NCBI GenBank assembly: GCA_965140735.1
Contig: OZ223306.1
Coordinates: 1,997,621-2,061,620 of the forward strand
Direction: 5' to 3'
Length of the DNA: 64,000 nucleotides
Source of the DNA: an uncultured Fusibacter sp.
Lineage (GTDB): Bacteria > Bacillota > Clostridia > Peptostreptococcales > Acidaminobacteraceae
In this document: piece after piece, positions 5,014-26,343 of the stretch
Layout of the letters: each line of letters opens with the position of its first letter
Position numbering within the stretch: the first letter of the stretch is position 1
Notes under the pieces: generated by a model
Database searches by the model: none
The model's input: the letters and a program-made list of their open reading frames with translations, nothing else
Told to the model about the DNA's origin: nothing
Program-made: the position numbers and the translations under genes

Positions 5014-5038
5014 AACAAGTAAAAAGGAGGCCAATCTC

Positions 5039-5273: not shown

Positions 5274-5306
5274 AAAAAAACGCCTCAGCATTAATGCCAA
5301 GACGTT
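5274..5306. terminator. Rho-independent terminator downstream of the CoADR-rhodanese gene (also serves the small plus-strand ORF)
   Basis: Minus-sense AACGTCTTGGCATTAATGCTGAGGCGTT (stem with G-U wobbles) followed by T7. In plus sense it is preceded by A7. Confidence 0.55.
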
Positions 5307-5318
5307 TTATCAATTTTA

Positions 5319-7349
5319 CTATTTTGCTGTACTTCTATATCGTGCCATCATTTTAGCCAGTCCACCACCATTTTCAGAATTGGTGAAACCCATAGACTTT
5401 AGAATTTGTAATGCATAAGCACTTCTCGCACCAGATGCACAGTAAAGAACAATCTTTCTATCTTTGTCGGTAAGTTCACTTGCTCTATATTCAAGTTCAT
5501 CTAAAGGAATGTTGATCGCACCCGGATAAGCACCATAAGCATACTCATCTTCAGAGCGCACATCGATAATCAACGGTCCAGTTTGAACTTCTGCTTCCAC
5601 TGCTTTTGCTTCTTCTTTTGAATCTTTAGCTTTTTCTGCGCTATTTGTATCACCAAGTGTTTTCAGCTCTGGTTCTGGTAAATTTAGAACAAAGTTGAGT
5701 GGTTTTACGGCTCTAGCATAGTTCGAGAGACTTATAAATCCGCCACTTACATTGAGTACATTTGTAAAGCCAGCCCCTACCAAAGTACGTAACGCTTGGT
5801 GTCCTTTTTTACCCGTTTGATCATAGACAAAGGTCAATTGATCCTTTTGTAATTTATCAAGTGTTGATGGAAGCATTTCGAGTGGTATATTAACAGCGCC
5901 TTCAACATGTGATTTTTCAAATGAAAAGACATCTCTTACATCTATCCAAAGCGCAGCTTTTTCTTCTAAATAGTCATCTAATTCATTAATTGTAAGTGTA
6001 GGCGAAAAACCTGAAATTCTGTTTTCAGCCACATAAGCTGCCATATTGATTGCATCATTTGCATTGCCAAGTGGTGGTGAATATGCAAAATCCATATCCG
6101 CTAAATCAGAAACAGTGAGTTTAGAAGCCACCGCTGTTGCCAAGACATCAAGTCTTCTATCCGCACCTGCATAACCTGCAGTTTGACCACCAAGTACAAC
6201 ACCTGTTTCCTTGTCATAAACCACGAGAACCGTTACAAGTTCTGCCCCTGGATAGTAAGACGTATGATTTTCTTTATGAACTACAATTGCATCTGCATTA
6301 ATGCCTTCAGCTCTTGCTGCTTTTAACGAAATACCCGTAATACCTGCAACTGCTTCGAAAACTCTAACGATGGATGTACCAATTGATCCTTTATATTCGT
6401 GTTTTTTTCCAAGTGCATTTTCTGCAGCGATTCTACCTTGACGGTTCGCTGGTCCAGCAAGTGGAATACGCACTTTCTTGCCGAGTACACGGTGCTCTAA
6501 TTCAATCATATCGCCAGCTGCATAGATGTTATCATCACTTGTTTTTAATGTTGAATCCACTAATATCCCGCCTGCAGGTCCCATTTCAAGACCCGTTTCT
6601 TGTGCAAGTTTTAAAGTAGGGCGTACACCGATTGATAATAAAACCATATCTGCATCTATCTTTGTACCGTCGTTAAGAAGGACGGTGTTCGCATGAATCT
6701 CAGAAAGTGCTTTATTAGTGTGTAAATCAATACCATATGAAATTAACTCTTCTTGGATAAAACCTGATATTTCAGCTTCCATAATCCCCATAACATGTGG
6801 CATCATTTCTACTACAGATACCTTCATGCCTCTTTTAGCAAGGGCTTCTGTCATTTCGAGACCTATAAATCCACCCCCCACAACTACTGCTGTTTTAGGC
6901 TGTTTATCTGTTATAAATGAATTGATTTTATCCATATCATCTAGAGTCCAAAGTTGAAAAACATGATCTTGATCCGCACCTGGAAGTGGTGGTGCTATCG
7001 GCTTACCACCTTGAGCTAAAATAAGCTTTGTATACTCAAACTGATTTTTTTTACCAGTACGTGAATCTGATGTATGCACGACTTTATTGACTCTATCAAT
7101 TTCTGTTGCTGTAGTATGGATATGAACTGTCGTTTGATACTGATCATTAAAACTCTCTGGGCTTTGTAAAATCAATTTTGAACGACTTTTGATGTCTCCG
7201 CCAATATAGTATGGCAATCCACAGTTTGCAAATGATATATCAGCACCCGCTTCTAGGATTGTAATTTCTGCATCTGCTGATATTCTTCGTACTTTTGCTG
7301 CAGCTGTCGCTCCTGCTGCTACACCACCAATAATAATTACTTTTTCCAT
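5319..7349 (-). CDS. CoA-disulfide reductase/NADH oxidase-family flavoprotein fused to two C-terminal rhodanese domains
   Basis: MEKVIIIGGVAAGATAAAKVRR...FANCGLPYY has an FAD/NAD(P) Rossmann fold and the redox-active Cys typical of CoADR/Nox. The C-terminus has two rhodanese-like domains including CASGARS. Start placed at the internal Met (MEKVII), which has a GAGGTGG RBS. Confidence 0.8.
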   Translation of the reverse strand: MEKVIIIGGVAAGATAAAKVRRISADAEITILEAGADISFANCGLPYYIGGDIKSRSKLILQSPESFNDQYQTTVHIHTTATEIDRVNKVVHTSDSRTGKKNQFEYTKLILAQGGKPIAPPLPGADQDHVFQLWTLDDMDKINSFITDKQPKTAVVVGGGFIGLEMTEALAKRGMKVSVVEMMPHVMGIMEAEISGFIQEELISYGIDLHTNKALSEIHANTVLLNDGTKIDADMVLLSIGVRPTLKLAQETGLEMGPAGGILVDSTLKTSDDNIYAAGDMIELEHRVLGKKVRIPLAGPANRQGRIAAENALGKKHEYKGSIGTSIVRVFEAVAGITGISLKAARAEGINADAIVVHKENHTSYYPGAELVTVLVVYDKETGVVLGGQTAGYAGADRRLDVLATAVASKLTVSDLADMDFAYSPPLGNANDAINMAAYVAENRISGFSPTLTINELDDYLEEKAALWIDVRDVFSFEKSHVEGAVNIPLEMLPSTLDKLQKDQLTFVYDQTGKKGHQALRTLVGAGFTNVLNVSGGFISLSNYARAVKPLNFVLNLPEPELKTLGDTNSAEKAKDSKEEAKAVEAEVQTGPLIIDVRSEDEYAYGAYPGAINIPLDELEYRASELTDKDRKIVLYCASGARSAYALQILKSMGFTNSENGGGLAKMMARYRSTAK

Positions 7350-7781
7350 ATAATCCACCTCATCTAATTTATTTTTAGGGAACATTGAAAACGGTTCGCT
7401 TTAAAGTTCCTTTTATTCTTTTAGTTTGTTTCTATTCTTTTATTTTTATTTTACCCCCTACCCAGGGGGTGTATTTACATTTTAATGGTTATTTGCTCTG
7501 TTGTCAATCATAATAAAAAAAGTTTACAATTGTGTATGATTCACATATGGTATACCGCATATGTTTTATACAGATCGCTGAACTGTTTTAAAATACAAAC
7601 AAAAAAAGGCACCCTCTCTTAAAAAGGACACCTTTACTCAGCTCTCTTACGTTTGCAGTTCTTGCTAACCGCAAGATTGATACAGGACGTTCTATTGCCA
7701 TCCAAGATGGTATATAATAAAAAGCACCCAATTTATAGGATGCTCATATTTTATCTTTTTGGGGACAACAAACAAGCGTTT

Positions 7782-9368
7782 TTACTTGTAAAAATCAATA
7801 TACTCTAAGTCGAGATCTCCATCAGCGCCGAGTTTAATCATAACATCAGCACTTTTAGGCACTTTAATATCAAATGAAATCTCTGTAAAATAAGGATGAC
7901 CATCCGTCGTATTTGGGAAAACTAACGTGTCTACCTTTTTCCCATTAATATACAGCATTACTGCGTCAATATCCTTCTTATTTGCATACCTAAAAGTTAA
8001 AGAAGAGGCTGCTGGCGTGTTCTTAAAAGTAATTGAATTTCCCTTCCAACAGAAATGTGTTAGAATACCATCAATCTGATTTACTCTGGCTATACCTGCC
8101 TTAATAACCGTGTTTTTATCTTTTGGCGTAAGTCTAACATAAGGCTTTTCGGAATCTGGAAATTCACCAGACTCTAAATAATCAGTCGTTGTATCAATCG
8201 TAACTGTATTTGTTAAATCATCCCAACCCATTGCAAAATCAAGCAACTTTGCGATATCTCTCAATTTGAAATAAGTTTTACCTTCTATATCATAAATTTG
8301 ATAATCCGTGTATAAGCCGTTTGTCTTTGGAAAGCTAACACGTTGATGTACTTCTGAAAAGGTAGCCACTTTTGAGGTACCATCACCAAGGGTTAACTCG
8401 TCCCCCACTGCCTTATAATTATCTGCAAAACGTATCGTTGTATAATGATCTCTATAGTCCACAGCAAATTTCTTATCAGTGTTTTCAAGTGCTTTTCCAA
8501 GGTCGGTAAGTAAAATGTAATTGCTTCCATCAATATTATAGGCGTTAAAAGTAACCTCGTTACCATCCACAAGTATTTTAGATGAGATCGGCGTTGCATT
8601 GAGTTCAGGTTCAAATGGCTTTTCCATCCATGCCTGAGCTTCTGCTGCGGTCACAACGTAAAATGCAATATTTTCGCCTAGCCCATGATACACATTATCT
8701 ATTGTGTATACTCTTACAGAACCATCCGGATTAAACGCCTTTTTAAATGTAAATGTCTGTGGCGCATCTCCCTGCCACATTTGGAAGAAAAGCGCTTTAT
8801 TCGTAGCACCTGTTATCAGCATTGGAGCCGGACCTACAAATGCATGTTCCCAATTCAATAAGCATTGTAAATACTCGGCTGTTCCCAATCCTATCGTCAG
8901 TGTAGAACCTTCAAGAACTGGAATAAGCCTCACTGAGTGTTTTCTAAGTTGCTCAGTCTCTGCCATCGAAATGACTGTTTTATCTACTTCACCTAACTTT
9001 GCAACTTGTGATTCAGAATCATATTTTCTTGTTAATTGAACCGAGTATCCTGTTATAGGTGCGTTAGGGTTTTCACCATATGTCGTCGGGTAATAATCAG
9101 GTCGAACTATGGAGACTCTCCGCCCAAATGTATAAGCATCAGGGATTCTTGTAAAATGCATTGTACCATCTGAAGCAATCTCGCCAACAGCTCCCGAAAG
9201 TCTGAGTTCTAACGTTCCTTTATAGTACTCGCCATCTCCTGTGACTTCCCACTCATAAGGTGTTGAATAGTCTGAGTTTGCAAAACTAATATTTTCAAAC
9301 TCAGTACCAATACAAGTAGCGATTACCAGCAAGAATGTACACATCATCATTAATCTACTTAATTTCAT
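7782..9368 (-). CDS. Secreted hypothetical protein with signal peptide and C-terminal copper-amine-oxidase-N-like/carbohydrate-binding-like region
   Basis: N-terminal MKLSRLMMMCTFLLVIATCIG signal-like sequence and a GAGGAGAG RBS. C-terminal segment ISSKILVDGNEVTF..ILLTDLGKAL resembles the 'stalk' domain common in clostridial secreted proteins. Confidence 0.5.
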   Translation of the reverse strand: MKLSRLMMMCTFLLVIATCIGTEFENISFANSDYSTPYEWEVTGDGEYYKGTLELRLSGAVGEIASDGTMHFTRIPDAYTFGRRVSIVRPDYYPTTYGENPNAPITGYSVQLTRKYDSESQVAKLGEVDKTVISMAETEQLRKHSVRLIPVLEGSTLTIGLGTAEYLQCLLNWEHAFVGPAPMLITGATNKALFFQMWQGDAPQTFTFKKAFNPDGSVRVYTIDNVYHGLGENIAFYVVTAAEAQAWMEKPFEPELNATPISSKILVDGNEVTFNAYNIDGSNYILLTDLGKALENTDKKFAVDYRDHYTTIRFADNYKAVGDELTLGDGTSKVATFSEVHQRVSFPKTNGLYTDYQIYDIEGKTYFKLRDIAKLLDFAMGWDDLTNTVTIDTTTDYLESGEFPDSEKPYVRLTPKDKNTVIKAGIARVNQIDGILTHFCWKGNSITFKNTPAASSLTFRYANKKDIDAVMLYINGKKVDTLVFPNTTDGHPYFTEISFDIKVPKSADVMIKLGADGDLDLEYIDFYK

Positions 9369-9692
9369 TTTAGTCTCTCCTCGTTTTCATTTTTCAAATC
9401 CAAGTGACTTATTCTTGTACTCTAAAAGATTTTACATGTTGATTCCATTGTATTCTATTTTTTATGATGAAAACGTCATTTGCACGAAATGGCCCTTTAG
9501 CGTCATGAAATGACTAAATATAAATTTCTGCTGATTTTTAAATTCATCTGCTGGTGATCTCTGTAATATAATTACACAATATGATATTATAAACGTTAGA
9601 GGGTATATCTAATGATTAGATATTAGCCATCACCTAACACTGACTTTGAATAGTCTCAAAATTAATAAAATTCAATTTAGAGGAGAACACAT

Positions 9693-13942: not shown

Positions 13943-14047
13943 AATTGCTCTCTAGTATCCTGTAATTATGGTTTATTGAGAAATTTATGGTTCATTGATT
14001 CAAAAAAATAAACGAACCCTCACATTTGTATAGGTTCGTTCTTTATT
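13943..14047. repeat. Left copy of imperfect ~105-bp direct repeat (attL-like): degenerate integrase 3'-end remnant plus tmRNA-terminator-like hairpin
   Basis: aattgctctctagtatcctgtaattatgg...ttcaaaaaaataaacgaaccctcacatttgtataggttcgttctttatt matches 25865..25979 (the int C-terminus codons plus the ssrA terminator) with several mismatches and one 8-bp indel. The int-like part here is interrupted by a stop. Confidence 0.6.
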
Positions 14048-15139: not shown

Positions 15140-15667
15140 GAAAAATAGTAAGCATCTTATTCATATTTGTTTTAGCAACAACATCGAGATTAGGTGCTTT
15201 TAGTACAGGTCTTGTAAGTGGCCTTATAGGTAGCTATATTGACTCAAAACTTCATTATGCGACTACACTAGACCTGTTGAAAATCACTCTGATCTAGGAT
15301 AATGTAATGGATTTCTAGGATCATGTTATGACCTCGTTGAGGCAGGCATTTGGAATTATTTATTTAACTAAACGTTCAAACAATTTAATATTCACGAAAG
15401 GAAGTTTCAATTATAGATTTATTTAATCATAAATTGATTTCAAAATTTTCTCACACTGTCTAACCAAATAATGCGCTTCCACCGCTACCATGAACTGAAC
15501 CTTATCCTCATTATAGACCCCAAACAAACTCCAACCTGCTTATGTCATTCCCTCAACACGACCCGGCTTAGTTCCATAAACTGACTCAATACGAATTGAG
15601 TCTTTTTTAGTGTAAATGTAAAAATAGTTTAACGCTCTTTGTGCTACAGGTATCTGTTCTCACCTCT

Positions 15668-16185
15668 CTACTCTTCCGCATAATACCGCCTATCCTTATA
15701 CTTCATCACCAACTCTTTCTGAACTCTCACAAGATCAAGATCAAACACCTCAGCAGCCTTTAAAAAATTGAAACTCAGTGCCATATGTAAATCAGCAATC
15801 TGTAATTGATGATAAAAAAAGTCATCCTGCTCACTCACCGACAAATACTGACACTCCCTCTTATTTCTCGTGATCTTCTTGATCGCCTTAGCACTTTCAA
15901 TCGCCTCTTCCATTTCCTCGATCAAACAATCCAGAACAGTGGTATAATTCTCATCCACATTATCAAGCAATGGCATATTAAAAAGACCAAGCTTTCTTTC
16001 AGTGGTATATTCAACCTTTAACCTCGGTTCTTTCACAATTCCTATGACTTTTTCGACTAGATCAGACGGAAACTCCTGAGTACCACGCTCACACTTACTG
16101 TAATTGCTCTGACTCATGCCCAACTGACATCCAGTGAAAGACCTTCTTTATCCCTTGCAAACTTCAAACGTTCGTAAAAGTGCAT
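15668..16185 (-). pseudogene. Frameshifted XRE-family HTH regulator with ~120-aa C-terminal domain (cI-like repressor candidate)
   Basis: ATG at ~16185 with an AAGGAGG RBS encodes MHFYERLKFARDKEGLSLDVSWA* (helix 1-2 of an XRE HTH). After a +2 frame change the 151-aa ORF continues QLGMSQSNYSKCERGTQEFPSDLVEKV (helix 3 onward) plus a C-terminal domain. Together they form one complete HTH_XRE domain. Confidence 0.5.
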
Positions 16186-16296
16186 CCCTCTATCGACCTC
16201 CTTTATTATGAAATTGAATTTTGTCACAATAGAATCAAACTCCTCGATATGATATTAATTAACATGTAAAATCGTGACTTTTATGAATAAAATTCT

Positions 16297-16497
16297 TCAT
16301 TTTGTGACTTTGTTATTAAAAAAAATAGTCCATTCAAATCCAAACAGTTCCGCAATTTTTTTTGCTAACCCTACTGATGGATTTCTTTTACTATTCTCAA
16401 TCTGGGTATAGTGCGTTCTTGAAATACCTACACTATCAGCAACTTTTTGTTGACTCATCCCTTTTTGATTTCTACTGTCAATAAGATACTGTCTCAT
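16297..16497 (-). CDS. Small XRE-family HTH transcriptional regulator (66 aa, cro/cI-like)
   Basis: MSQQKVADSVGISRTHYTQIENSKRNPSVGLAKKIAELFG is a canonical HTH_3 domain. Upstream is a TTGACG-17-TATATT promoter overlapped by GTCACA operator motifs. Confidence 0.75.
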   Translation of the reverse strand: MRQYLIDSRNQKGMSQQKVADSVGISRTHYTQIENSKRNPSVGLAKKIAELFGFEWTIFFNNKVTK

Positions 16498-16661
16498 CGC
16501 ATTCTCCTTTAAGACTCATTTTGTGACTATATTAATAATATAGCCACAATTAGAGTATTCGTCAACACTTTTTTTAACATTCAACATTTTTTTATTACAT
16601 TTTGTTAAATCCAATATTGTCTGTCACAAAAAGAAACACTATAATATAGTAGAGGTGTCAT
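16498..16661. promoter_or_regulatory. Divergent promoter/operator region of the island's regulatory switch
   Basis: Minus-sense TTGACG-17nt-TATATT drives the 66-aa XRE gene. Plus-sense TTGTCT (16617..16622)-17nt-TATAAT (16640..16645) drives the first ImmR-like gene. Repeated TTTGTGACT / GTCACAA motifs at 16521..16530 and 16623..16629 overlap the promoter elements, and similar motifs occur at 16221..16230, 16273..16279 and 16301..16310. Confidence 0.5.
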
Positions 16662-16979
16662 ATGAAAATTAATCGTTTAAGAGATTTAAGAACTGAAAAA
16701 GGACTTACGCAATATGAAATTGCTGATTATTTAAATCTTAAAAGAACAACTTATGCAAATTATGAAAGTGGTACTAGAGAACCCGACTATGAAACTCTTT
16801 TAAAGATATCAGATTTCTTTGATGTTTCAATTGACTACCTATTGGAAAAAACCGATATTCGAAAATATACAGAAGATATTCTCGCTTTCAACTCTACTGA
16901 AGGTTTGACAGAAGATGATCTCAAACTTGTTCATCAGATGATTCAGAATATGCGAGATAAGAATTTGAGTAAGAAGTAG
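16662..16979 (+). CDS. ImmR/SinR-like XRE-family repressor, paralog 1 (HTH plus conserved C-terminal tail)
   Basis: LRTEKGLTQYEIADYLNLKRTTYANYESGTREPDYETLLKISDFFDVSIDYLLEKTD is an HTH_XRE domain with the ..VS.DYLL..TD motif. The C-terminal YTEDILAFNSTEGLTEDDLKLVHQMIQNMRDKN is shared by all four paralogs. Confidence 0.8.
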   Translation: MKINRLRDLRTEKGLTQYEIADYLNLKRTTYANYESGTREPDYETLLKISDFFDVSIDYLLEKTDIRKYTEDILAFNSTEGLTEDDLKLVHQMIQNMRDKNLSKK

Positions 16980-17055
16980 GATTTAATAATTGAGATTAGG
17001 AGCTGTAAGGCTCTTTTTCTAGGATTATACATGGTGAATATTGTTATACTTGAGA
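16872..17055. repeat. Left copy of ~185-bp direct repeat (3' end of ImmR-like gene plus ~75 bp downstream)
   Basis: About 90% identical to 19222..19403 (gaagatattct..gcgagataagaattt..gataattgagattaggagct.taaggctctttttcta..atacatggtga.tattgttata). Confidence 0.7.
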
Positions 17056-17144
17056 AATGTTATCACTCTATTAAGTGTCTCTTTCATATCTAATTGACAA
17101 AATTTTAATTACCTCATTTTTAATAAATTGAGAAAGGAGAAATT

Positions 17145-18197
17145 ATGAATTTATACTACTACTCAAAGCATATGCTAACCATTTTCAATAATAACAATGA
17201 ACTAATAAATTATTTTAAAGAGCTTAGCCTATGTCAAGAAACTCTTATTATCAATCCCAAGGATATAGCAAATTTGCCAGCGGGGGGTACGGAACTGAGC
17301 GAAAGTGTGAATGAAATTAGAAATGAAATTAATGACGATTTGAAAAAAACATTATCAATTATTCGAAAGAATAAACCATTGAATGTGATGTCTTTAATAA
17401 GTAATTTCATCGTTGAATTAATGGCTTCTGATGACACTTTTGGTTCAGACAATAATTTTATCGAAAAATTAAGTGAATTTATTAAACTTCATACTGATGC
17501 CTATTCTGATGAAACACTGCCCCACGTATATAAACTTACTAAATTGAGCTCAAAATTATATCAATCCATTTCTAGTTATATTGAACATTTTGAGTTTATC
17601 GTTGAAAGTAATGAAAAAAACTTTGATTCTATCCCATCTACGCACAATATAATATCAATTAACTCAGATCAAAAAACATATTATATAAGTGAATTTGTCA
17701 ATATTTTTACAAGTATAGAAAAACTATATGAATACATCTGTTTCATTTACCAAATTGATGCTGAAAAACCTAATAATAAATTATTAATTAATGATATTCA
17801 CACTGGTTCGTGGGCTACTGACTTACTTGGAATCAAACAAGTTGTTATTACTATTGAAAACTTATTAAAGGGTATAGGTGTATTTTTAAGAGATCTTATA
17901 ACTGGTCAAATCAGTAAAGAAATGTATCTTAATAAATGTGAACAAATGTCTGCATATATGGATTTAGTTAAAAAAGCAAAAGAAATTGGAATTGATAATC
18001 CGGAAGTCGGTTTATTAAAATGTTTAAAACCATTTGGCGAAATTGCTGAAAAAGGAATGACTACTCTTGAAGTTAATGGAGAAGATGTATTAAATCTCTC
18101 TGCTTACGAAAAATTGATTATAAAAATTATAAAATTGGATCTCGAAAAATTGATTGAAAGTGCCACTCAAATTGAACAATTAGAAGAAAAAGAATAA
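17145..18197 (+). CDS. Hypothetical protein (350 aa), no recognisable domain, embedded inside the ImmR-like array
   Basis: Strong AAAGGAG RBS upstream of the ATG. Predicted soluble and helical-rich, with no motif I can assign. Confidence 0.55.
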   Translation: MNLYYYSKHMLTIFNNNNELINYFKELSLCQETLIINPKDIANLPAGGTELSESVNEIRNEINDDLKKTLSIIRKNKPLNVMSLISNFIVELMASDDTFGSDNNFIEKLSEFIKLHTDAYSDETLPHVYKLTKLSSKLYQSISSYIEHFEFIVESNEKNFDSIPSTHNIISINSDQKTYYISEFVNIFTSIEKLYEYICFIYQIDAEKPNNKLLINDIHTGSWATDLLGIKQVVITIENLLKGIGVFLRDLITGQISKEMYLNKCEQMSAYMDLVKKAKEIGIDNPEVGLLKCLKPFGEIAEKGMTTLEVNGEDVLNLSAYEKLIIKIIKLDLEKLIESATQIEQLEEKE

Positions 18198-18263
18198 ACT
18201 GAAACTGATTTTTTTGACATGTTGGTGAATTTTTTCCGAGCTAATATAAAAAATATTCATCTA

Positions 18264-18327
18264 ATGATATCAAACTTGTTCATCAGATGATCCAAAACAT
18301 GCGGAATAAGAATTTGGGTAAGAAATA
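18264..18327 (+). pseudogene. 3'-terminal remnant (last ~21 codons) of a further ImmR-like paralog
   Basis: gatatcaaacttgttcatcagatgatccaaaacatgcggaataagaatttgggtaagaaatag encodes ...DIKLVHQMIQNMRNKNLGKK* with no 5' part. It is followed by the shared 5' leader of the next paralog. Confidence 0.6.
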
Positions 18328-18347
18328 GAATTTACATTAGGTGAAAT

Positions 18348-18668
18348 ATGCTATTTAGTGAAAGATTCAAGGCTTTAAGACAAGAAAAAGAATTAACTCA
18401 AACAGAACTTGCAAATAAGCTAAATATTTCTCAAGGTTCTGTTGCAATGTATGAAAGTGGAAAAAGAATACCTGAAAATAATGTGCTTATATTATTGTCT
18501 AAGTTTTTTGATGTCTCAACTGATTATTTATTAGGACTTACTGATATAAGAAAATACTCAGAAGATATTCTTGCTTTTAATTCTACTGAAGGTTTAACTG
18601 AAGACGATCTCAGACTTGTTCATCAAATGATTCAAAATTTAAGAGATAAAAATTCAGGAAATAAGTAA
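18348..18668 (+). CDS. ImmR/SinR-like XRE-family repressor, paralog 2
   Basis: MLFSERFKALRQEKELTQTELANKLNISQGSVAMYESGKRIPENNVLILLSKFFDVSTDYLLGLTD plus the conserved tail. The first ~75 nt are identical to paralog 4. Confidence 0.8.
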   Translation: MLFSERFKALRQEKELTQTELANKLNISQGSVAMYESGKRIPENNVLILLSKFFDVSTDYLLGLTDIRKYSEDILAFNSTEGLTEDDLRLVHQMIQNLRDKNSGNK

Positions 18669-18669
18669 G

Positions 18670-18987
18670 ATGATAAAATTAAGACTACGAGAATTAAGAC
18701 AATCAAAACAACTAACACAGGAAGAACTCTCTAAAATTTTAAAAATTCCTAGATCTACATATGCAAATTATGAAAATGGAAGCAGAGAGCCTGATAATAA
18801 TACAATTTCTTTAATATCTGATTATTTTAATGTATCAGTAGACTACCTTTTTGGTAAAACTGATATAAAAAAATACACCGAGGATATTCTTGCTTTTAAT
18901 TCTACAGAGGGTTTAACTGAAGATGATCTTAAACTTGTTCATCAAATGATTCAGAATATGCGGGATAAAAATTTAGGTAAGAAATAA
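18670..18987 (+). CDS. ImmR/SinR-like XRE-family repressor, paralog 3
   Basis: MIKLRLRELRQSKQLTQEELSKILKIPRSTYANYENGSREPDNNTISLISDYFNVSVDYLFGKTD plus the conserved tail. The start codon sits 2 nt after the stop of paralog 2. Confidence 0.8.
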   Translation: MIKLRLRELRQSKQLTQEELSKILKIPRSTYANYENGSREPDNNTISLISDYFNVSVDYLFGKTDIKKYTEDILAFNSTEGLTEDDLKLVHQMIQNMRDKNLGKK

Positions 18988-19006
18988 AATTTACATTAGG
19001 TGAAAT

Positions 19007-19327
19007 ATGCTATTTAGTGAAAGATTCAAGGCGTTAAGAGAAGAAAAAGGATTAACACAAGAAGAACTCTCTAAAATTCTTGGTGTTGGACGATCCACAA
19101 TTGCTGGATATGAAACAAAATCAAAGCAACCTAACTATGAACTTTTAAATAAAATTTCAATTTTTTTTGATGTGTCTACTGACTATTTACTAGGTCTTAC
19201 TGATGTAAAAAAATATTCAGAAGATATTCTTGCCTTCAACTCTACTGAAGGTTTGACAGAAGATGATATCAAACTGGTTCATCAGATGATTCAAAATATG
19301 CGAGATAAGAATTTGGGTAAGAAATAG
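19007..19327 (+). CDS. ImmR/SinR-like XRE-family repressor, paralog 4
   Basis: MLFSERFKALREEKGLTQEELSKILGVGRSTIAGYETKSKQPNYELLNKISIFFDVSTDYLLGLTD plus the conserved tail. Confidence 0.8.
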   Translation: MLFSERFKALREEKGLTQEELSKILGVGRSTIAGYETKSKQPNYELLNKISIFFDVSTDYLLGLTDVKKYSEDILAFNSTEGLTEDDIKLVHQMIQNMRDKNLGKK

Positions 19328-19403
19328 AATTTGATAATTGAGATTAGGAGCTATAAGGCTCTTTTTCTAAGATCATACATGGTGATTATTGTTATAAGTG
19401 CTA
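19222..19403. repeat. Right copy of ~185-bp direct repeat flanking the ImmR-like array
   Basis: See 16872..17055. The repeats bracket a 2.35 kb segment holding the 350-aa ORF and paralogs 2-4. Confidence 0.7.
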
Positions 19404-19514: not shown

Positions 19515-20804
19515 ATGGTATTAAAATTATCTGCATTTACAGTGATTATCATAACGATATTATCTATTGTTGCTTTAGACATAGTTGCACACTTAATCGC
19601 TCACTTAATTGGAAACACCAATCCAAAATGGTATAAGCTTTTAGGTATAGTTTCATTTCTTTATATTGTATGCTACACTTCACTAACGGCAACCGGATTC
19701 CTTGTAATAAACAAAACTCTAGATGGTGAAAATGAATCTATTGTAAGTCAAAATTCAAATGAAATTTACTCAGTTACTGCTAAATCTGATCCTGCTAGTG
19801 CTTCAATATTCTCAGGAACTGGATATAATTTTAAAACCGGAGACTCTTATTCTGTTGATGTTGAGTACGATAAAACGAAGTATCGTTTTGATGGATGGGA
19901 AGGCGATAACGAAGGTACTATTTCATCTATGGATGTCTATCTTATAGCACATTTCACACCGATTATGTATTCTGTCAATGCAAAAGCATCTCCCCCTGAA
20001 GCTGCAACTTTCTATGGAATAGGGGATAATTTTGACTCTGGCGATAAATTTAATATAACTTTTACCTACGATAAGAATAAGTATAAATTTGAAAGTTGGT
20101 CAAAAGATAATTCTGGTATTGTAGAAAATGCCGATATAAATTTATTAGCAACTTTTACTCCTATTTACTACACCGTCACAGCCGTTTCCAATCCGCCTAA
20201 TGTAACATCTTTCAATGGAACTGGTACCGATTTTTTTTATGGAGATCCCTATAACGTTACACTAACTGATAATCTAGATAACTATGAATTTGTTAAATGG
20301 TCTAATGATAACTCTGGTGTGATCTCTGGTAACAATATTAATTTAATTGCTGAGTTTCAAGAAAAGGAAGTTTTCGACAGCATTAGTTCTCTTAATTTCT
20401 TATCAAAAGCGGAAGTTCATGCTTCAATAAAATCATTTACATCTAATTATGGAACTACATATTATGACTCATTTGTAGTACAAGACGGCATATTAGAAGG
20501 TGGTCACTCAAAATATGAGATCGTTTTAGATGGAAAATATAAAAAATTTAAGGCTGTTATGGCAGCAACACAAAGAATGTCTGAGGCACGTGTATTTAAA
20601 AACTTTGGAGAAGTTTTAATTAAAGGCGATGGAGAAACACTCTACGATAATGTTATTAATAGTAATGATAAACCTGTAGATATTGACATTGATATTAGTA
20701 ATATTGATATTTTAGAAGTCCAAGTTTATGTAGCCGCTGGTGCCGGCTATAATTCAGCCGAAACCTTGGAAATTGGTGTTGGTGATATGAAATTTTGTTA
20801 TTAA
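19515..20804 (+). CDS. Membrane-anchored surface protein with three Listeria-Bacteroides (Flg_new-type) repeats and a C-terminal NPCBM/NEW2-like putative carbohydrate-binding domain
   Basis: N-terminal TM segment. Three ~65-aa repeats (YSVTAKSDP..GTGYNF.TGDSYSVDVEYDKTKYRFDGW / YSVNAKASP..KYKFESW / YTVTAVSNP..NYEFVKW) match the Flg_new pattern. C-terminal ..DGKYKKFKAVMAATQRMSEARVFKNFGEV...LEVQVYVAAGAGYNSAETLEIGVGDMKF resembles NPCBM. Confidence 0.55.
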   Translation: MVLKLSAFTVIIITILSIVALDIVAHLIAHLIGNTNPKWYKLLGIVSFLYIVCYTSLTATGFLVINKTLDGENESIVSQNSNEIYSVTAKSDPASASIFSGTGYNFKTGDSYSVDVEYDKTKYRFDGWEGDNEGTISSMDVYLIAHFTPIMYSVNAKASPPEAATFYGIGDNFDSGDKFNITFTYDKNKYKFESWSKDNSGIVENADINLLATFTPIYYTVTAVSNPPNVTSFNGTGTDFFYGDPYNVTLTDNLDNYEFVKWSNDNSGVISGNNINLIAEFQEKEVFDSISSLNFLSKAEVHASIKSFTSNYGTTYYDSFVVQDGILEGGHSKYEIVLDGKYKKFKAVMAATQRMSEARVFKNFGEVLIKGDGETLYDNVINSNDKPVDIDIDISNIDILEVQVYVAAGAGYNSAETLEIGVGDMKFCY

Positions 20805-20889
20805 AATATCCCACTATTCTTTTTTATATTTATATGCCTATTGATTTACTATTACAGACTATACTATATCTAGAGGAAGGACTAAATAT

Positions 20890-22473
20890 ATGCTTAAGCC
20901 CAAAAGTAACAAGTACACATTTGAAAGTATAGACATAAGCAAACTAATTCTCAATCCACAAAATGCTCGATTTTATTCTGGACAGGAAAATGAATCGGAA
21001 TTTGATACTGTAAATGAAATGCTTAATTTAAAGGATTCTCATATTGTTCCATTAGCACTAGACATTGATAAAAACGACTTAAACTCACATGAACTTTTAA
21101 TTGTAAAGCCTATAGAAAATAACCAATACTTTGTTCTAGAAGGTAATCGAAGAACCACTGCAATTAAGCTAATGACTCAATATAAAAACGAATTACAGAA
21201 CTTAGATTTGAGGGCTACAGATATTAAAAAACTTCTAGTTACAAAATATAACAATACCATGCTCCCATGTGTTGTATCATCTGATGATGATTATATTAAT
21301 CAATTATTAGAGCGAACACATACTGCAAAAAAAGGGATTAGCCGAGCTATGTGGAATCCACTGGCTGCGGATAATTTTAGAGATAGTCTTGGCCAACCCT
21401 CAAAGCGAAAAACGCTTCTTGATATGGTGCTTTCATCTGAGTTTTGTACAGAAAAAGTTATCGAAATAGCTTCTTCAGATAGATGGATAGCACAATTTGC
21501 TCGTTTTACGAAAAAAAATGATGTCATGAGAAATTATTTCGGAGTTGAGTTCATTGACAATGAAAATGTTTTATTAATCTGGAATGAAAAAATAACAGTT
21601 GAACGCTTATGCCAATTAATATATGATTGTAAAGCCTTAAAGGCTTCTGAGATGGCTCAAACAGATGAACTCATTGATAATTATTTAAATAATAATATCC
21701 TTGATTTTAATGTTCTCAATCCAAGTGAATTTAATAATCCAATAATTGCATATAATCACGAGGTAAATCAGTTTTACCCTACAGATAAAGAAAACAAACA
21801 TTACCGTGAGATCGAATTGCCTACTGTAGTTGCATCCCCTAGCAAAACTGCTCCAACTATTACTGAAAATACATCCATGACTTCCTCATCTCACAATATT
21901 GTTACTCATCCTACTACAGATTTGATATCTGAAATCTATCCTGATATTACTATTGAAAGTGAATTACTTGACGACATTGATCCTGTACTGGATCCAGGAT
22001 TAAAAAGAGGTCCTAAACCTAACATTACTTTGATTTCTAGAAAATATCATATTCCAATTTCAGATCAGAGAGTCCAAGATCTATTTGCAGAGTTGAAAAA
22101 ATTACCTTTAAATCACTATATTAATGTTGGAGCAATAGGTTTTCGATCACTCATTGAATTTACAGTAAATATTTATATTGAAAAAGTTATGAACAAAAAA
22201 TTAGGTTCTTATCATTCCTTAGAAGAAAAAGTTATAGCTGTGTATAAACGAATTTCTGGAAATATAGGTGCTGGTGAAGCTAAAAAGTTTATGCCTGCTT
22301 TTTCAATAGATATTGAAAGTGATAAGATCTCTGAATGTGGTGTTATTTCAATTCTAAACACCTTAATTCACAATCATAATTTACATCCTACTATTTCTGA
22401 TTTACAGCAAAGTTTTAAAAATTATTACATGTTTTTAAAATTTTCTTGGAGTGATATCAACAAATTTTATTGA
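20890..22473 (+). CDS. ParB/Sulfiredoxin-fold N-terminal domain protein (527 aa) with GxRRxxA NTP-binding/nuclease-like motif and long uncharacterised C-terminal region
   Basis: ILNPQNARF...LLIVKPIENNQYFVLEGNRRTTAIKLM matches the ParB N-terminal domain (ParBc), including the GERRxRA-like box (GNRRTTA). The remaining ~400 aa have no motif I recognise. Confidence 0.6.
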   Translation: MLKPKSNKYTFESIDISKLILNPQNARFYSGQENESEFDTVNEMLNLKDSHIVPLALDIDKNDLNSHELLIVKPIENNQYFVLEGNRRTTAIKLMTQYKNELQNLDLRATDIKKLLVTKYNNTMLPCVVSSDDDYINQLLERTHTAKKGISRAMWNPLAADNFRDSLGQPSKRKTLLDMVLSSEFCTEKVIEIASSDRWIAQFARFTKKNDVMRNYFGVEFIDNENVLLIWNEKITVERLCQLIYDCKALKASEMAQTDELIDNYLNNNILDFNVLNPSEFNNPIIAYNHEVNQFYPTDKENKHYREIELPTVVASPSKTAPTITENTSMTSSSHNIVTHPTTDLISEIYPDITIESELLDDIDPVLDPGLKRGPKPNITLISRKYHIPISDQRVQDLFAELKKLPLNHYINVGAIGFRSLIEFTVNIYIEKVMNKKLGSYHSLEEKVIAVYKRISGNIGAGEAKKFMPAFSIDIESDKISECGVISILNTLIHNHNLHPTISDLQQSFKNYYMFLKFSWSDINKFY

Positions 22474-22526
22474 TTATCATCCCTCTCCATGGTATAGTAT
22501 ATTGAGCAAAAAAATGAGGAGGGCAT

Positions 22527-24158
22527 ATGAAAATTTTACTAATTGAACCAAGTTATAAAAATAAATATCCCCCTTTAGGATTAATGAAAATCGCTACTTA
22601 CCATAAATCTCGTGGAGATTATGTTTACTTCCATAAAGGGCTATATGATACAGACGAAAGTTGGGATCGAGTTTATATCACTTCGTTATTTACTTTTGAT
22701 TTTGATTTAGTCGTCAAATCAGTTGAGTACTATAAAAAAATTTTTACTGATAAAAATAAGATTTATCTTGGTGGAATTGCTGCTACGCTTTTAGAAGAAA
22801 AATTCAGAACCACTACTAAGTTAGACAATATGTTGACTGGTAGATTAACAAATTCTTCTCAAATTGGTTTTGATGACAATGTGAATATTGATTCATTGAT
22901 CCCAGATTATGATATTTTGATGGATACTGATTATAAGTACGGCACTGGCGATAGCATAATAAGTTATACTTCCCGTGGATGTATTAACACATGTTCATTT
23001 TGTGCAGTCCCGCTACTTGAAGGTCAGCTTACAACGGTAAACAATATTAGCTCTCAGATCAATACTATTAGAGATAAATATGGCGACAAAAGAAATCTAT
23101 TGCTGCTTGATAATAATATTCTTGGTTTTGATGAAGCTTATCTCACTAAATTCGTAACTGAGCTTAATCAGCTTGGATATATAAATACGCCATCTTATTA
23201 TCGAGTAACACGATTTGAAGAATTAATGGGCTATTATTATCGACAACTTGCTAACGGTTGTAGAACATTAAATGCATTGAAATTGATTGAAGAGTTCTTA
23301 CAAGAACTGTTAATTAAGACTACTGTCTCAGCTTCAAATAAAGAGATCATACAAGATATTCTTGATGAAGCTTACGCCGCATCCGACTTCTTTGATGTAA
23401 TGGAAAGTCGATATAATGAGATTGTTGATATTAGTACCTTCCATTATTTAAGAAATCCTCTTCAAAGATATGTGGATTTCAATCAAGGATTAGATGCGCG
23501 AGAGTTGACTCCTGAGAAAATGAAAATTCTTGCCAGACTACCGATCCGCCCATACCGTTTTGCTTTCGATAATATTAAATCAAAAGATGAATATTCTAAA
23601 GCAATCCGATTGGCTTCTGATCACGGTGTTAGACACTTTTCAAATTATTTGCTCTATAATTTTAAAGATGATCCTGTCGAGCTATACGAACGGATTATGT
23701 TAAATTTAGAATTGGTTGAAGAATTAGATCTAGTAATTTATTCATTTCCAATGAAATATGCACCTATTGATAAAACCAATCGAAAATATATAGGTGAAAA
23801 ATGGAATGCACATTTCTTGAGAATGTTTCAAGCTATTATTAATGTGACAAAAGGTGTAGTCGCAGGTGATCGTTCTTTCTTAGAGACTGCATTTGGTCAC
23901 ACTAAAGAAGAATATATTGAATTATTGCATATGCCACACGATTTTATAGTTTATAGAAATTTTTACCAAAATATCGGATTAACAGCTGACTGGAAAAAAG
24001 AATTTTCAAAATTGTCAAAATCACAAAAAGAAAAACTCATTGAAATAATTTCAACACTAAAATATGAAACTGATATCAATGAATTAAAACCTATTATTAA
24101 ATTCTATACAATGAGATACAAGCAAATTAAAGAGATCCCCAATTCAACAGCAAGTTGA
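22527..24158 (+). CDS. Cobalamin-binding-domain (class B) radical SAM enzyme, 543 aa
   Basis: N-terminal MKILLIEPSYKNKYPPLGLMKIATYHKSRGDYVYF matches the B12-binding domain signature of class B rSAM proteins. YTSRGCINTCSFCAVP gives a CxxxCxxC radical-SAM cluster motif. There is a long C-terminal extension without Cys clusters. GAGGAGG RBS upstream. Confidence 0.65.
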   Translation: MKILLIEPSYKNKYPPLGLMKIATYHKSRGDYVYFHKGLYDTDESWDRVYITSLFTFDFDLVVKSVEYYKKIFTDKNKIYLGGIAATLLEEKFRTTTKLDNMLTGRLTNSSQIGFDDNVNIDSLIPDYDILMDTDYKYGTGDSIISYTSRGCINTCSFCAVPLLEGQLTTVNNISSQINTIRDKYGDKRNLLLLDNNILGFDEAYLTKFVTELNQLGYINTPSYYRVTRFEELMGYYYRQLANGCRTLNALKLIEEFLQELLIKTTVSASNKEIIQDILDEAYAASDFFDVMESRYNEIVDISTFHYLRNPLQRYVDFNQGLDARELTPEKMKILARLPIRPYRFAFDNIKSKDEYSKAIRLASDHGVRHFSNYLLYNFKDDPVELYERIMLNLELVEELDLVIYSFPMKYAPIDKTNRKYIGEKWNAHFLRMFQAIINVTKGVVAGDRSFLETAFGHTKEEYIELLHMPHDFIVYRNFYQNIGLTADWKKEFSKLSKSQKEKLIEIISTLKYETDINELKPIIKFYTMRYKQIKEIPNSTAS

Positions 24159-24193
24159 AACAGTTTACATTCTAAAAATAAAATGTTATCCTA

Positions 24194-24228
24194 GAAACAG
24201 AACGTGTGTTCTGTTTCTTTTTTTTATT
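24194..24228 (+). terminator. Rho-independent terminator after the radical SAM gene
   Basis: AGAAACAGAAC-GTGT-GTTCTGTTTCT followed by T8. Confidence 0.7.
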
Positions 24229-24246: not shown

Positions 24247-24744
24247 ATGACCAAACTACTCGACATAATCACCACCCTTGGCATCCACATCGAATACAGC
24301 CCCGATCTTCCCTCTAAAATCAGAGGGTTTTATTATAAGGACTCAGGCGATGAGATCATCGTCATGAATGAAGACATCAAAGACGAAACCGAGTTCCGTC
24401 ACGTCTTAGCGCATGAACTAGGGCACTATTTTACCACTATAACGACTAAATCGCTCTCGCCTTATTCGTCATATCTGGATATACTTAATACCCACAGAAA
24501 CGAATCTCGTGCGATTAGATGGGCATGTGATTACCTTATCCCTACATACGATCTCATAGACTATCTAAAATCACAAAAGGGTATCTCAGTGGCAGATATC
24601 GCACAGGCATTTAAAGTCACAGAGGAAATGATCACCATGAAATTAACCATCATGAGTCTTGAAAGGCTCTACTGGAAAGTCGATGATAAAAGACAGTTGG
24701 TCCTCACTTCCCTACCCTCTATTTATATGTATACGCCATTATAA
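24247..24744 (+). CDS. ImmA/IrrE-family zinc metallopeptidase (anti-repressor protease candidate)
   Basis: VLAHELGHYF holds the HEXXH motif in the position typical of ImmA/IrrE (COG2856-like). The gene sits immediately upstream of the integrase, as immA does in ICEBs1. AGGAGG RBS upstream. Confidence 0.7.
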   Translation: MTKLLDIITTLGIHIEYSPDLPSKIRGFYYKDSGDEIIVMNEDIKDETEFRHVLAHELGHYFTTITTKSLSPYSSYLDILNTHRNESRAIRWACDYLIPTYDLIDYLKSQKGISVADIAQAFKVTEEMITMKLTIMSLERLYWKVDDKRQLVLTSLPSIYMYTPL

Positions 24745-24767: not shown

Positions 24768-25886
24768 ATGGCGAAAAAGACAAACTTTGAAACCAATGGC
24801 AAAGAATATTACCGTGTTAGGGCTCAGATCGGTATTAATGATCAGGGTAAGCAGATCATGAAGGTCTTTTATGGCACTTCTAAAAAAGAGGCTGAGTTAA
24901 AGCGTGATGAGTACTTTGCAAACCTCAGACGTGGTATGGCACTGGATTATGACAAGTTGAAGTTTTCGGACTTCTTTTCCAATTGGCTCGATATCGTTCA
25001 TAGACCCACACTGGCACAAAGCTCATATAACCGCTATGATACGATTCATCGGATATGGATATCACAGAGTGGCTTCTACACCATGAAGCTCACTGCTATT
25101 AAGAGTATGAACATACAGCAGTATATGAACACCATCGACAAGGTACCCACTGCTGAAAAGATGTATATGCTCTTGTCCTCATTTTTTAAGTATTGCATCA
25201 GAGAAAGGGTACTCACCTTTAATCCTATGGACAACGTGCGCAAACCGAAGCAAAAACAAGTCGAAAGTAAAAAGCATCTTGATCGTGATGAAATCGCACT
25301 GCTCACTGAAGCTTACAGTGCAGATCAAAGTCTATTCGTCTATTTATTCGCATTGTTCACAGGTCTTAGACAAGGCGAGATTTTGGCGCTTACACATGCA
25401 GATATTGAAAATGATCTGATCAAGGTGAATAAAACACTGAACAGAGTTAAAAAGGATGGCAGAAACCAAGTGATCGTCACTGCACCTAAAACGCCATCAA
25501 GCATTCGGGTGATTCCCTTATTTGATGAATTAAAAGAGCCACTGAGGCGACATGTCATTCTTGAAAAAGAAAAGCATCTCCGACTTGGGATTCATTTTTC
25601 TAAAAGCAATCATCTTTTCACTGCAAATAACTGTTCTCCCATCAGAGGCGATCGCTTAACTTCAAGATGGCGAAAACTTCAAAATCAATTAGGAATTGAG
25701 GAAGATGTAAACTTTCACGCTTTACGTCATACTTTTTGCACGCTACTTGCCTCAAAAGGTGTCCCTCTAAAAACAGCTGCCACACTTATGGGCCATTCAG
25801 GTATAGAAACCACTGCTCGGATTTATACGCATGTGGATGTAGATTCTAAGATCGAAGCGATCAAATTGCTCTCTGGTATTATGTAA
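24768..25886 (+). CDS. int: Tyrosine-type site-specific integrase
   Basis: N-terminal SAM-like and core-binding region. C-terminal catalytic HALRHTF...LMGHSGIETTARIYTHV (R, H-x-x-R, Y). Adjacent to the ssrA 3' flank, with an AAAGGAG RBS upstream. Confidence 0.85.
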   Translation: MAKKTNFETNGKEYYRVRAQIGINDQGKQIMKVFYGTSKKEAELKRDEYFANLRRGMALDYDKLKFSDFFSNWLDIVHRPTLAQSSYNRYDTIHRIWISQSGFYTMKLTAIKSMNIQQYMNTIDKVPTAEKMYMLLSSFFKYCIRERVLTFNPMDNVRKPKQKQVESKKHLDRDEIALLTEAYSADQSLFVYLFALFTGLRQGEILALTHADIENDLIKVNKTLNRVKKDGRNQVIVTAPKTPSSIRVIPLFDELKEPLRRHVILEKEKHLRLGIHFSKSNHLFTANNCSPIRGDRLTSRWRKLQNQLGIEEDVNFHALRHTFCTLLASKGVPLKTAATLMGHSGIETTARIYTHVDVDSKIEAIKLLSGIM

Positions 25887-25979
25887 TTATGGCTTATCGA
25901 AAACTTTATGGTTAAATTATGGTTAATTGATTCAAAAAAACAAACGAACCCTTGCATTTGCAAAGGTTCGTTCTTTATT
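25865..25979. repeat. Right copy of direct repeat (attR-like) = integrase 3' end plus ssrA rho-independent terminator
   Basis: Minus-sense hairpin GAACGAACCTTTGCAAATGCAAGGGTTCGTT followed by a T-run, directly downstream of tmRNA. The sequence is repeated imperfectly at 13943..14047. Confidence 0.6.
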
Positions 25980-26343
25980 GGTGGAGCCGAGGGGAATCGA
26001 ACCCCTGTCCAAAAACAAATTCCTATCACTTTCTCCGAGCGCAGTCGCTTCATAAAATTCGCTCACAAGCACGTTTAACGACACACACACTAGCAAGCTA
26101 TTTCTATTATACTACCAAATCAAATTAGAAAAGCATCTGATACAGAGACCCCAGCAGGGTTTAGGTCAATGATCCTAGGCGGCTGAGATAAGGCCTAGGG
26201 TTGACGCTGCGATTAGGCAGCTAGTGCAAAATTTTCGTTTGCAATTATATTTAAGTGGTCCAGTTCATTAACGTGTACCCCAGACCAAGAAACACGGCTC
26301 GCTTACAACAGTGCATCATCCCTGTCGAAACCTGGACGGCCCC
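25979..26343 (-). ncRNA. ssrA: tmRNA (SsrA), ~365 nt, tag peptide reading frame ANENFALAA*
   Basis: 5' end GGGGCCGTCCAGGTTTCGACAGGGATGATGCACTG... and 3' end ...GGGGTTCGATTCCCCTCGGCTCCACCA, i.e. acceptor stem and T-arm. Internal GCA AAC GAA AAT TTT GCA CTA GCT GCC TAA encodes a typical ..ALAA degradation tag. smpB lies immediately upstream. Confidence 0.85.

Follow-up and report, generated by a model that had tools for sequence, protein, structure and literature searches.

Four related repressor genes in a row on an integrative island beside the tmRNA gene of an uncultured Fusibacter

Why should one integrative island carry four intact repressor genes, three of them in close succession, when each of its close relatives carries a single one? 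The question is raised by a 64,000-nucleotide stretch of DNA from an uncultured Fusibacter sp. (GenBank assembly GCA_965140735.1, contig OZ223306.1, positions 1,997,621 to 2,061,620), the whole of which was analysed and is termed here the window. It contains an 11.9-kb island next to ssrA, the transfer-messenger RNA (tmRNA) gene. On the island are four genes of the XRE family, xre1 to xre4, which encode helix-turn-helix (HTH) proteins related to the immunity repressor ImmR, together with a gene for an ImmA-type protease. An initial annotation had viewed the four proteins as repressors of distinct operator specificity, all made sensitive to one protease by a shared C-terminal tail, with variation generated by recombination. 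In the reading favoured here xre1 would be the island's own repressor, and there is about an even chance that xre2, xre3 and xre4 are ImmA-cleavable repressors of other mobile elements, carried as cargo and acting in trans.

The repressor genes and their conserved tail

The four XRE open reading frames (ORFs), of 105–106 amino acids (aa), are present as originally annotated on the forward strand: xre1 at 16662..16979, xre2 at 18348..18668, xre3 at 18670..18987 and xre4 at 19007..19327. All four match Pfam HTH_3 (6e-16 to 2e-18), and they constitute a direct-repeat family with four copies of 300 nt on one strand. Each gene is intact and has a ribosome-binding site. xre3 begins 1 nt past the xre2 stop codon, and 19 nt separate xre3 from xre4. 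Pairwise protein identity over the whole length is 63–71% and is unevenly distributed, the first ~66 residues being diverged and the last ~40 nearly invariant.

A fifth copy, mentioned as a remnant in the initial annotation, is genuine. It lies at ~18178..18328 on the same strand and keeps EEKE.TETD, FFD, KKYS and DIKLVHQMIQNMRNKNLGKK followed by a stop codon, but it is a pseudogene with internal deletions and without a usable start codon. Its tail is recognizable over 23 aa (78–83% identity, tblastn), and 5′ and middle fragments are detected by blastn. The 5′ end of this copy provides the stop codon of a 350-aa ORF (orf350, 17145..18197, forward strand), which parts xre1 from xre2–4. No match to orf350 was found in Pfam, PADLOC, PHROG or NCBIfam, and these profiles assign it no function.

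Is the tail shared by recent copying or by selection? The tail had been described as almost identical in both protein and DNA. At the protein level this is correct (37 aa, 86–100% identical between copies), but the DNA is only 82–90% identical. Tail differences per pair amount to 6.5–17.5 synonymous versus 2.5–7.5 non-synonymous changes; the xre1–xre3 pair has 17.5 versus 2.5 (p=1e-11) and the xre3–xre4 pair 17 versus 3. The proportion of synonymous sites that differ (pS) is 0.5–0.77 in the tail, which is the level found in the HTH part, with the exception of the xre1/xre4 pair (pS 0.28). Because the tail has diverged at synonymous sites as far as the HTH has, the paralogs are old and the tail is kept by purifying selection. 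Recent gene conversion as the source of tail identity is excluded by the same high tail pS, save for xre1/xre4.

A role for the tail is suggested by structure and by comparison with known protease targets. In an AF2 model (predicted local distance difference test, pLDDT, 81), a five-helix HTH domain is followed by a linker, a short helix at residues 71–79 that includes ILAF, and a long helix at 84–103; the HTH of xre1 spans residues 4–60. The xre1 protein matches the PADLOC capH profile (3e-14), with residues 4–100 on profile positions 9–101 of 103. The C-terminal helices of CapH, DdrO and SinR form the dimerisation domain (bioRxiv 10.1101/2022.04.27.489752; PMC8960796). In CapH this domain comprises residues 67–107 and is cut by CapP between F82 and R83 in its first helix (bioRxiv 10.1101/2022.04.27.489752), with CapP docking onto the C-terminal helix and cutting the first (PMC13228613). 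The initial annotation overlooked that the tail in this class of protein doubles as a dimerisation domain.

In Listeria, several cohabiting elements have CI-like repressors that are cut between A74 and H75 by the ImmA-like protease MpaR (Argov et al. 2019, PMC6872733), and the motif common to the repressors that it cuts is TIAAHIDxxxxEExxxxILAYIE (PMC6872733). Protein gp33 of Listeria phage A500 bears the MpaR-cut motif. BLASTP alignments of xre3 and xre4 to gp33 extend through the tail and place ILAF/NST...TEDDLK opposite TIAA/HID...SEEDIK of gp33, where the slash marks the site of cleavage, a predicted one in the window proteins. By this alignment, the tail is the likely protease-target region, as originally proposed. 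ImmA cuts ImmR between F95 and M96, in the C-terminal linker preceding the last helix (PMC8960796). The best local alignment to ImmR puts F76/77 on F95 (LLF/MND), a marginal match (shuffle p ~0.055). Homology of the tail to ImmR was also sought by family hhalign and is not upheld, as the alignment ends at residue 69; a tail-only profile searched against Protein Data Bank (PDB) sequences gave chance-level matches only (E at least 0.07). The tail is probably a combined module for dimerisation and for ImmA docking and cleavage, and a cut is predicted after Phe76/77 (ILAF/NST) in all four proteins, after F76 in xre1.

The candidate protease is encoded at 24247..24744 (forward strand), 4.9 kb 3′ of the array and directly upstream of a tyrosine integrase gene, in agreement with the initial annotation. 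It is an M78 metalloprotease of 165 aa (Pfam Peptidase_M78, 3e-16; phrog_87, 5e-23) with H56ExxH60 and E86, and consists of the protease domain only. It matches PADLOC capP at 2e-10, over profile positions 39–150 of 242.

DNA-reading domains and candidate operators

If the tails are alike, do the HTH domains read the same DNA? The proteins are ImmR/CI-like, as had been noted: the best match among PDB sequences is the ImmR DNA-binding domain 7t8i (3e-9, phmmer), hhalign to ImmR gives 99.2% probability over residues 2–69, and the Foldseek superposition has a root-mean-square deviation of 1.5 Å. The HTH domains of xre1–4 differ from one another at 37–49% of protein positions, the proportion of non-synonymous sites that differ (pN) being ~0.33. 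DNA contacts were compared at 16 positions, as proposed for ImmR (PMC8960796). The claim of different recognition regions holds in part; three clearly distinct contact sets can be told apart, yet 12/16 predicted contacts are the same in xre1 and xre3.

For two of the four proteins a counterpart was found in another element. The relatives used for comparison are L001, a syntenic metagenome contig; L002, from F. ferrireducens; and L010, L011 and L012, further contigs with this tail. The HTH of xre2 matches the single repressor of the L001 sister island (L001x) in 16/16 contact residues. The two HTH sequences are 95% identical in DNA and differ by 8 synonymous and 0 non-synonymous changes (p=4e-6). 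The xre4 protein shares 15/16 contacts with the L012 repressor (L012x), which adjoins sheath, baseplate and other PBSX-like tail genes. Here the two parts of the protein diverge in their affinities: between xre4 and L012x the pN is 0.12 in the HTH and 0.34 in the tail, while the xre4 tail differs from those of its island paralogs by a pN of only 0.03–0.08. Thus, xre4 has the HTH of a PBSX-like-element repressor and a tail of the island type. Remaining pairs have 6–11/16 contact residues in common. The L012 locus (1–9626), with the nearest relative of the xre4 DNA-binding domain, has a PBSX/monocin-like contractile-tail set (sheath, baseplate J, YQBQ), and the setting is reminiscent of the Listeria monocin, the protease of which has several elements under its control.

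The DNA that these domains might recognize was looked for in the switch region (16221..16645), which has the island's only operator-like cluster and a putative xre1 promoter. It overlaps a gene for a 66-aa Cro-like XRE protein (16297..16497, reverse strand), the divergent partner of xre1, which matches HTH-repressor PHROGs; an equivalent small divergent XRE gene is present in L001, L002, L010 and L011. A palindrome, TTGTGACTATATTA/ATAATATAGCCACAA, is found at 16521–16549. The word TTTGTGAC occurs at 16301, at 16520 and, on the reverse strand, at 16623, and TTGTCACAA occurs at 16221; of the five TTTGTGAC sites found over the whole 64 kb, three lie inside 330 bp at the switch. A promoter-like TTGTCT-17-TATAAT is at 16617–16645.

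The switch regions contain repeated words that differ from one immunity type to the next. The L001 type has GTGATAAT-N5-ATTATCAC and the L012 type AGTTCC-N5-GGAACT and AGGAACAAT. L002 and L011, whose repressors have 15/16 contacts identical, have operator words in common. As operator words here track contact residues, the reading of operators from switch words is supported. In a motif scan, operator words of the L001, L002/L011, L010 and L012 types were absent from the island. Likewise, no operators for xre2–4 were found in the island with the motifs of the five relatives or by a search for inverted repeats in intergenic regions. In the L001 sister island, the switch palindrome GTGATAAT-N5-ATTATCAC recurs within the cargo at 16301–16321, and the L001 repressor may also control a cargo promoter.

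Related islands and the cargo slot

How unusual is the array? An island of this type also occupies the corresponding site in L001 and L002, with a Cro-like gene divergent from one tailed repressor gene, followed by variable cargo, ImmA and integrase; their cargo includes a methyltransferase and Lamassu/Mrr-type genes. In L010, L011 and L012 as well, one repressor faces one Cro-like gene. The comparison of copy number proposed in the initial annotation thus gives a single repressor in 5/5 close relatives, a point that the annotation itself had overlooked. More distant homologues are found in prophage lysogeny modules, either as a cro gene facing xre, M78 and recombinase genes or as xre, DUF8426 and int, and in temperate Firmicute phages the homologues are annotated as CI-like repressors.

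Neighbouring XRE genes on the same strand were seen in 3/97 related loci, all phage-like contigs: L045 (two genes), L080 (three) and L019 (two, ~450 bp apart). None of these three has four copies or near-identical tails. In L080 (191–4523; IMGVR_UViG_3300045988_128849), the three tandem XRE genes encode 110, 139 and 90 aa, the first and third being alike in HTH and tail; they are followed by two paralogous genes of 156–157 aa, a fourth XRE gene and a 170-aa ORF. A search for further arrays returned only F. ferrireducens from the genome collection and five distant single-copy loci from a metagenome scan. In a word-indexed search of 5.8 billion proteins, nine proteins with this tail were found, 4/9 from the window. 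Since the relatives carry one repressor and no row of four occurs among the 97 loci, the array is a local expansion, known from one genome. Nothing specific on tandem ImmR or repressor arrays was found in the literature. Neither the tandem layout encoded in cis nor its position among defence cargo was found described, in line with the initial annotation's view of the array, but that a single protease can act on several repressors is known from Listeria MpaR.

The position of xre2–4 within the island is indicated by a small element found 3′ of the repressor gene in six loci. A hairpin, a T-run and an extended −10-like TGTTATAMT make up this element, which lies behind the single repressor in each of the relatives. 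The window has two copies on the forward strand, one at 16989..17050 past xre1, with the extended −10-like TGTTATACT, and one at 19337..19397 past xre4, with the −10-like TGTTATAAG. RNAalifold gives −11.5 kcal/mol for the hairpin and detects no covariation, only one-sided changes. Given the place of the element behind the lone repressor of each relative, xre2–4, which lie beyond its first copy, are in cargo position. That the array occupies the island's cargo slot, of which orf350 is the first gene, was overlooked in the initial annotation. A homologue of orf350 (50% identity) lies 3′ of an xre1-like gene in L010; on this ground xre1–orf350 is probably the older arrangement.

A third, partial copy of the hairpin sequence (81%, ATCGAGATTAGGTGCTTTTAG) is found at 15183–15203, on the far side of the switch and 3′ of a 145-aa membrane ORF. 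No repressor remnant was detected beside it.

Mosaic structure of the array

Alignment of the paralogs reveals three clear breakpoints, although not the active cassette exchange that the initial annotation envisaged. One is in xre2, which is orthologous to L001x from codon 12 on (95% DNA identity), whereas its leader plus 117 bp across the junction upstream of it have 91% identity to the junction between xre3 and xre4. The 11-residue leader MLFSERFKALR is indeed common to xre2 and xre4, and its DNA is 97% identical, compared with 62–65% just 3′ of it. Another involves xre1 and xre4, whose tails and 3′ flanks are 193-bp direct repeats of 90% identity (second copy at 19208–19399), the flanks including the hairpin element described above. 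Identity falls sharply to 50–58% on either side of these repeats, which bracket orf350, the pseudogene, xre2, xre3 and the xre4 HTH. The third is the incongruence between HTH and tail of xre4 when compared with L012x. Either a foreign HTH was grafted onto the island tail in xre4 or the HTH changed partner in the L012 lineage; the sequences would fit both. Because synonymous changes in the tails are close to saturation, the pattern is read as old mosaicism maintained under purifying selection and not as an active cassette system.

Proposed role and alternative explanations

The island adjoining ssrA appears to be an 11.9-kb integrative element with the type of regulation known from ICEBs1 and from the Listeria monocin. 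At its left is a divergent Cro-like/ImmR-like switch, at its right are ImmA and integrase, and between them is a cargo slot that in relatives carries defence genes. The xre1 protein would be the island's own immunity repressor (ImmR), since its gene has the switch position held by the single repressor in all relatives. The products of xre2–4, and formerly perhaps the dead copy, would be functional, anciently diverged immunity repressors carried as cargo behind the duplicated hairpin and promoter-like element; the DNA-reading residues of xre2 are those of the repressor of a sister island with the same att site, and those of xre4 are those of the repressor of a PBSX-like tail element. These three repressors most likely act in trans, as the operator words of the cognate elements are absent from the island; they would provide repressor-type immunity against other mobile elements, or a coupling to them. 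The shared two-helix tail may serve both as the dimerisation surface needed for DNA binding and as the part on which the M78 protease docks and which it cuts. Activated ImmA would then cut all four proteins after Phe76/77 and switch them off together.

A stronger version is more tentative and is considered rather doubtful. Here the island would hoard the repressors of its rivals, with foreign HTHs grafted on its own tail, for multi-element immunity or silencing and joint release by one ImmA. The rivals, named with the same reserve, might be sister islands that compete for this ssrA site, a phage or tailocin of the PBSX-like kind, and one or more further elements.

Several points weigh against the proposal that xre2–4 are cleavable repressors of other elements. 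The array is known from one genome only. For xre3, neither a single-copy orthologue nor a known cognate element was found, and its contacts resemble those of xre1. Operators were read from palindromes only, and no trans target was seen within the scanned 64 kb of the ~5-Mb genome. The likeness of the tail to that of ImmR is marginal, and the hhalign alignment stops short of it. The sequences themselves show the anatomy, the pattern of selection, the homologies, the single copy in relatives and the lack of foreign operator words, whereas cleavage, dimerisation, operator assignments and trans action are steps that we infer. In addition, identical dimerisation tails would allow mixed dimers, which could weaken each specificity.

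Could the array be something else? The initial annotation worried about an assembly duplication artefact, which can be dismissed as virtually inconceivable. Nothing beyond the repetitive look of the array speaks for it, while the HTH-part DNA is only 58–66% identical among copies (34–42% of nucleotides differ), most synonymous tail sites differ too, every junction is unique and the array lies inside a single 4.99-Mb contig. An inert scar deserves more thought. Heteroimmune sister islands may have co-integrated or recombined at ssrA, with deletions then leaving a functionless row of repressors. Co-integration of this type is documented for CTX-phi and RS1 with different rstR alleles (PMC11509585); decay has already made a pseudogene of one copy, both integrase and switch show mosaicism when relatives are compared, and the duplicated 193-bp and 117-bp junctions, 90–91% identical and bracketing parts of the array, point to recombination. 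Such an origin is nevertheless hard to reconcile with four intact copies that have ribosome-binding sites, with strong purifying selection on the tails in every pair, with 0 non-synonymous versus 8 synonymous changes in the xre2 HTH since its split from L001x, and with gaps of 1 and 19 nt, which are unlike the residue of whole-island deletions. A functionless scar is accordingly thought unlikely.

Perhaps the extra copies act on xre1 itself. In a hetero-oligomer circuit of the SinR/SlrR type, mixing through the tails would tune or antagonise xre1 and set the threshold of the island switch. Near-identical tails render heteromers plausible, particularly with the dimerisation function of the C-terminal helices in CapH, DdrO and SinR; xre1 and xre3 have 12/16 contacts in common; and among the structures that Foldseek matches over the full length are SinR/SinI, an arbitrium phage repressor and phi106 repressor–AimX complexes. 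Yet there is no Pfam SinI match and no SinI-like tail-only peptide is encoded, the remnant being without a start codon, and 5/5 close relatives run the same switch on one repressor. Moreover, xre2 and xre4 keep the exact contacts of other elements' repressors, which a titrating partner would not need. Such a circuit, too, is improbable. A role closer to the cargo is even harder to credit, namely that xre2–4 are local regulators of orf350, the adjacent 429-aa protein gene and the PD-Lambda-5-like pair, released on DNA damage in the manner of CapH/CapP. The matches of xre1 to capH and of ImmA to capP, the PD-Lambda-5_A homologue in the cargo and the recurrence of the L001 switch palindrome in the cargo of that island (16301–16321) are in its favour. 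But inverted repeats and operator-like words are absent from all cargo intergenic regions of the window, the 165-aa ImmA is without the GAF domain of CapP, and relatives with other cargo have one repressor. The reading of xre2–4 as cleavable, trans-acting repressors of other elements is therefore retained, at the even odds given above.

Comparison with known repressor–protease systems

The closest parallel is the MpaR system of Listeria, which has already established that a single protease can control several repressors by way of a C-terminal motif common to them. There, as is proposed here, one ImmA-like protease serves several XRE repressors that differ in their DNA-binding domains but have a conserved stretch in common beyond the HTH. 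It is to this cut stretch that the window tails align, and xre4 is closest to the repressor of a PBSX/monocin-like element. The Listeria repressors, however, are on separate elements with their own operators, whereas the window has four in tandem, three of them without local operators, and cleavage is predicted only.

ICEBs1 of Bacillus subtilis, with ImmR, ImmA and Int, resembles the island in its regulatory module. The window has an ImmR-related HTH, an M78 HExxH protease beside a recombinase, and a divergent Cro-like switch with repeated candidate operators. The HTH is most similar to that of ImmR, the M78 gene is directly upstream of int, and the divergent switch has several operator sites, putative ones in the window. 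The differences are that the window repressor has 105 aa and is without the extra ImmR helix (residues 64–88), that the likeness of the tails is non-significant (p ~0.055), and that the window has 4.9–7 kb of cargo between repressor and protease, no conjugation genes, and four repressors instead of one.

Like CapH, a protein of ~105 aa with an HTH at ~2–67 and a two-helix C-terminal domain at 67–107 that is cut after Phe in the first helix, xre1 has an HTH plus two-helix architecture, and defence cargo is found with both. The window protease does not resemble CapP to the same extent; it is without the linker, GAF domain and cysteine switch, and the setting differs in being an integrative island with int and several repressors.

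The RstR repressor of CTX-phi is similar in having a highly diverged repressor/operator region between conserved flanks. NCBIfam phage_RstR (NF041951) matches xre1 over the full length at 77.6 bits (E 7.5e-22), under the curated cut-off of 80. RstR alleles confer no cross-immunity, and heteroimmune elements co-integrate at one site (PMC11509585). CTX-phi arrays, however, are tandem whole prophages and not bare repressor genes, and they have no ImmA-type protease. In the SinR/SlrR/SinI system of Bacillus, XRE paralogs likewise share a C-terminal helical multimerisation domain, and the Foldseek match to 1b0n is full-length although loose. The window differs in having no SinI-domain match or HTH-less antagonist, and in its mobile-element context with ImmA.

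Other features of the island

The island is bounded by a 66-nt direct repeat, the two copies of which are 89% identical. The left copy, attL, is at 13982..14047, and a 47-nt part of it matches the ssrA-proximal sequence of L002. The right copy, attR (25914..25979), abuts the 3′ end of ssrA (25979–26343, reverse strand), in the terminator region. The 3′ end of the tmRNA was considered as the att repeat, but it is not itself repeated; the repeat is the terminator region beyond it. The gene next to ssrA matches SmpB of L002, identified there by Pfam SmpB.

Past the array, the cargo genes at 19515..24158 (forward strand) encode proteins of 429, 527 and 543 aa. The first (19515–20804) is a predicted membrane protein with a Pfam NPCBM match; it displays repeated InlB-B-like units together with the NPCBM/NEW2 domain. 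The 527-aa protein matches PADLOC PD-Lambda-5_A (3e-54). The 543-aa protein is radical-SAM-like and matches phrog_9298; it has no match to any PADLOC model, PD-Lambda-5_B included. Together the two genes (20890–24158) may constitute a variant form of a two-gene defence system.

A strong hairpin (11-bp stem, T8) is found at 24193–24218, where the cargo ends and immA has yet to begin. Similarity to L002 begins at 24199, and most of the hairpin is inside the conserved DNA. It could be a terminator that insulates immA–int, or a 5′ leader element. The counterparts of ImmA in L002 and L001 are 94% and 92% identical to it, respectively. This conservation alone carries no extra signal, because it is about the level of the housekeeping protein SmpB, which is 95% identical to that of F. 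ferrireducens (L002) and marks the window as DNA from a close relative of that species. The tyrosine integrase (24768..25886, forward strand; Pfam Phage_integrase, 6e-23) is ~51% identical to the L002 integrase over the whole protein. Its gene is a mosaic, with the first ~190 nt and the last ~170 nt showing 86–88% DNA identity to the F. ferrireducens island (L002 18165–19311). In L001 (18646–19473), the integrase is called as two fragments (182 + 79 aa) that match the window integrase in two frames; the L001 gene is probably frameshifted.

On the left, a leftward backbone module encodes a 151-aa HTH regulator (15668..16123, reverse strand; phrog_1124, ‘transcriptional regulator’), 94% identical to its L001 counterpart and 79–89% to that of L002. 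A short ORF on the same strand at 16100–16185, MHFYERLKFARDKEGLSLDVSWA followed by a stop codon, resembles the first half of an HTH and overlaps the start of the regulator gene out of frame. L001 and L002 have the same arrangement, with conservation of the DNA, and either a frameshift that has been preserved or a gene in two parts is suggested by this.

Concluding remarks

What would such an array mean? If the extra repressors are active, the island would have a compact means by which one element controls or excludes several others, with the specificities standardised on one protease-sensitive tail. The Listeria ‘multi-phage anti-repressor’ idea would then extend to an array encoded in cis, and repressor genes would join the list of defence-island cargo. 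Should the hoarding of rival repressors prove true, it would represent an undescribed repressor-array form of defence or of control between elements. Inert copies, on the other hand, would make the locus no more than a trace of past recombination between heteroimmune islands. With four natural DNA-reading domains on an invariant tail, the array also offers a test system for ImmA-type recognition and for mixed dimers.

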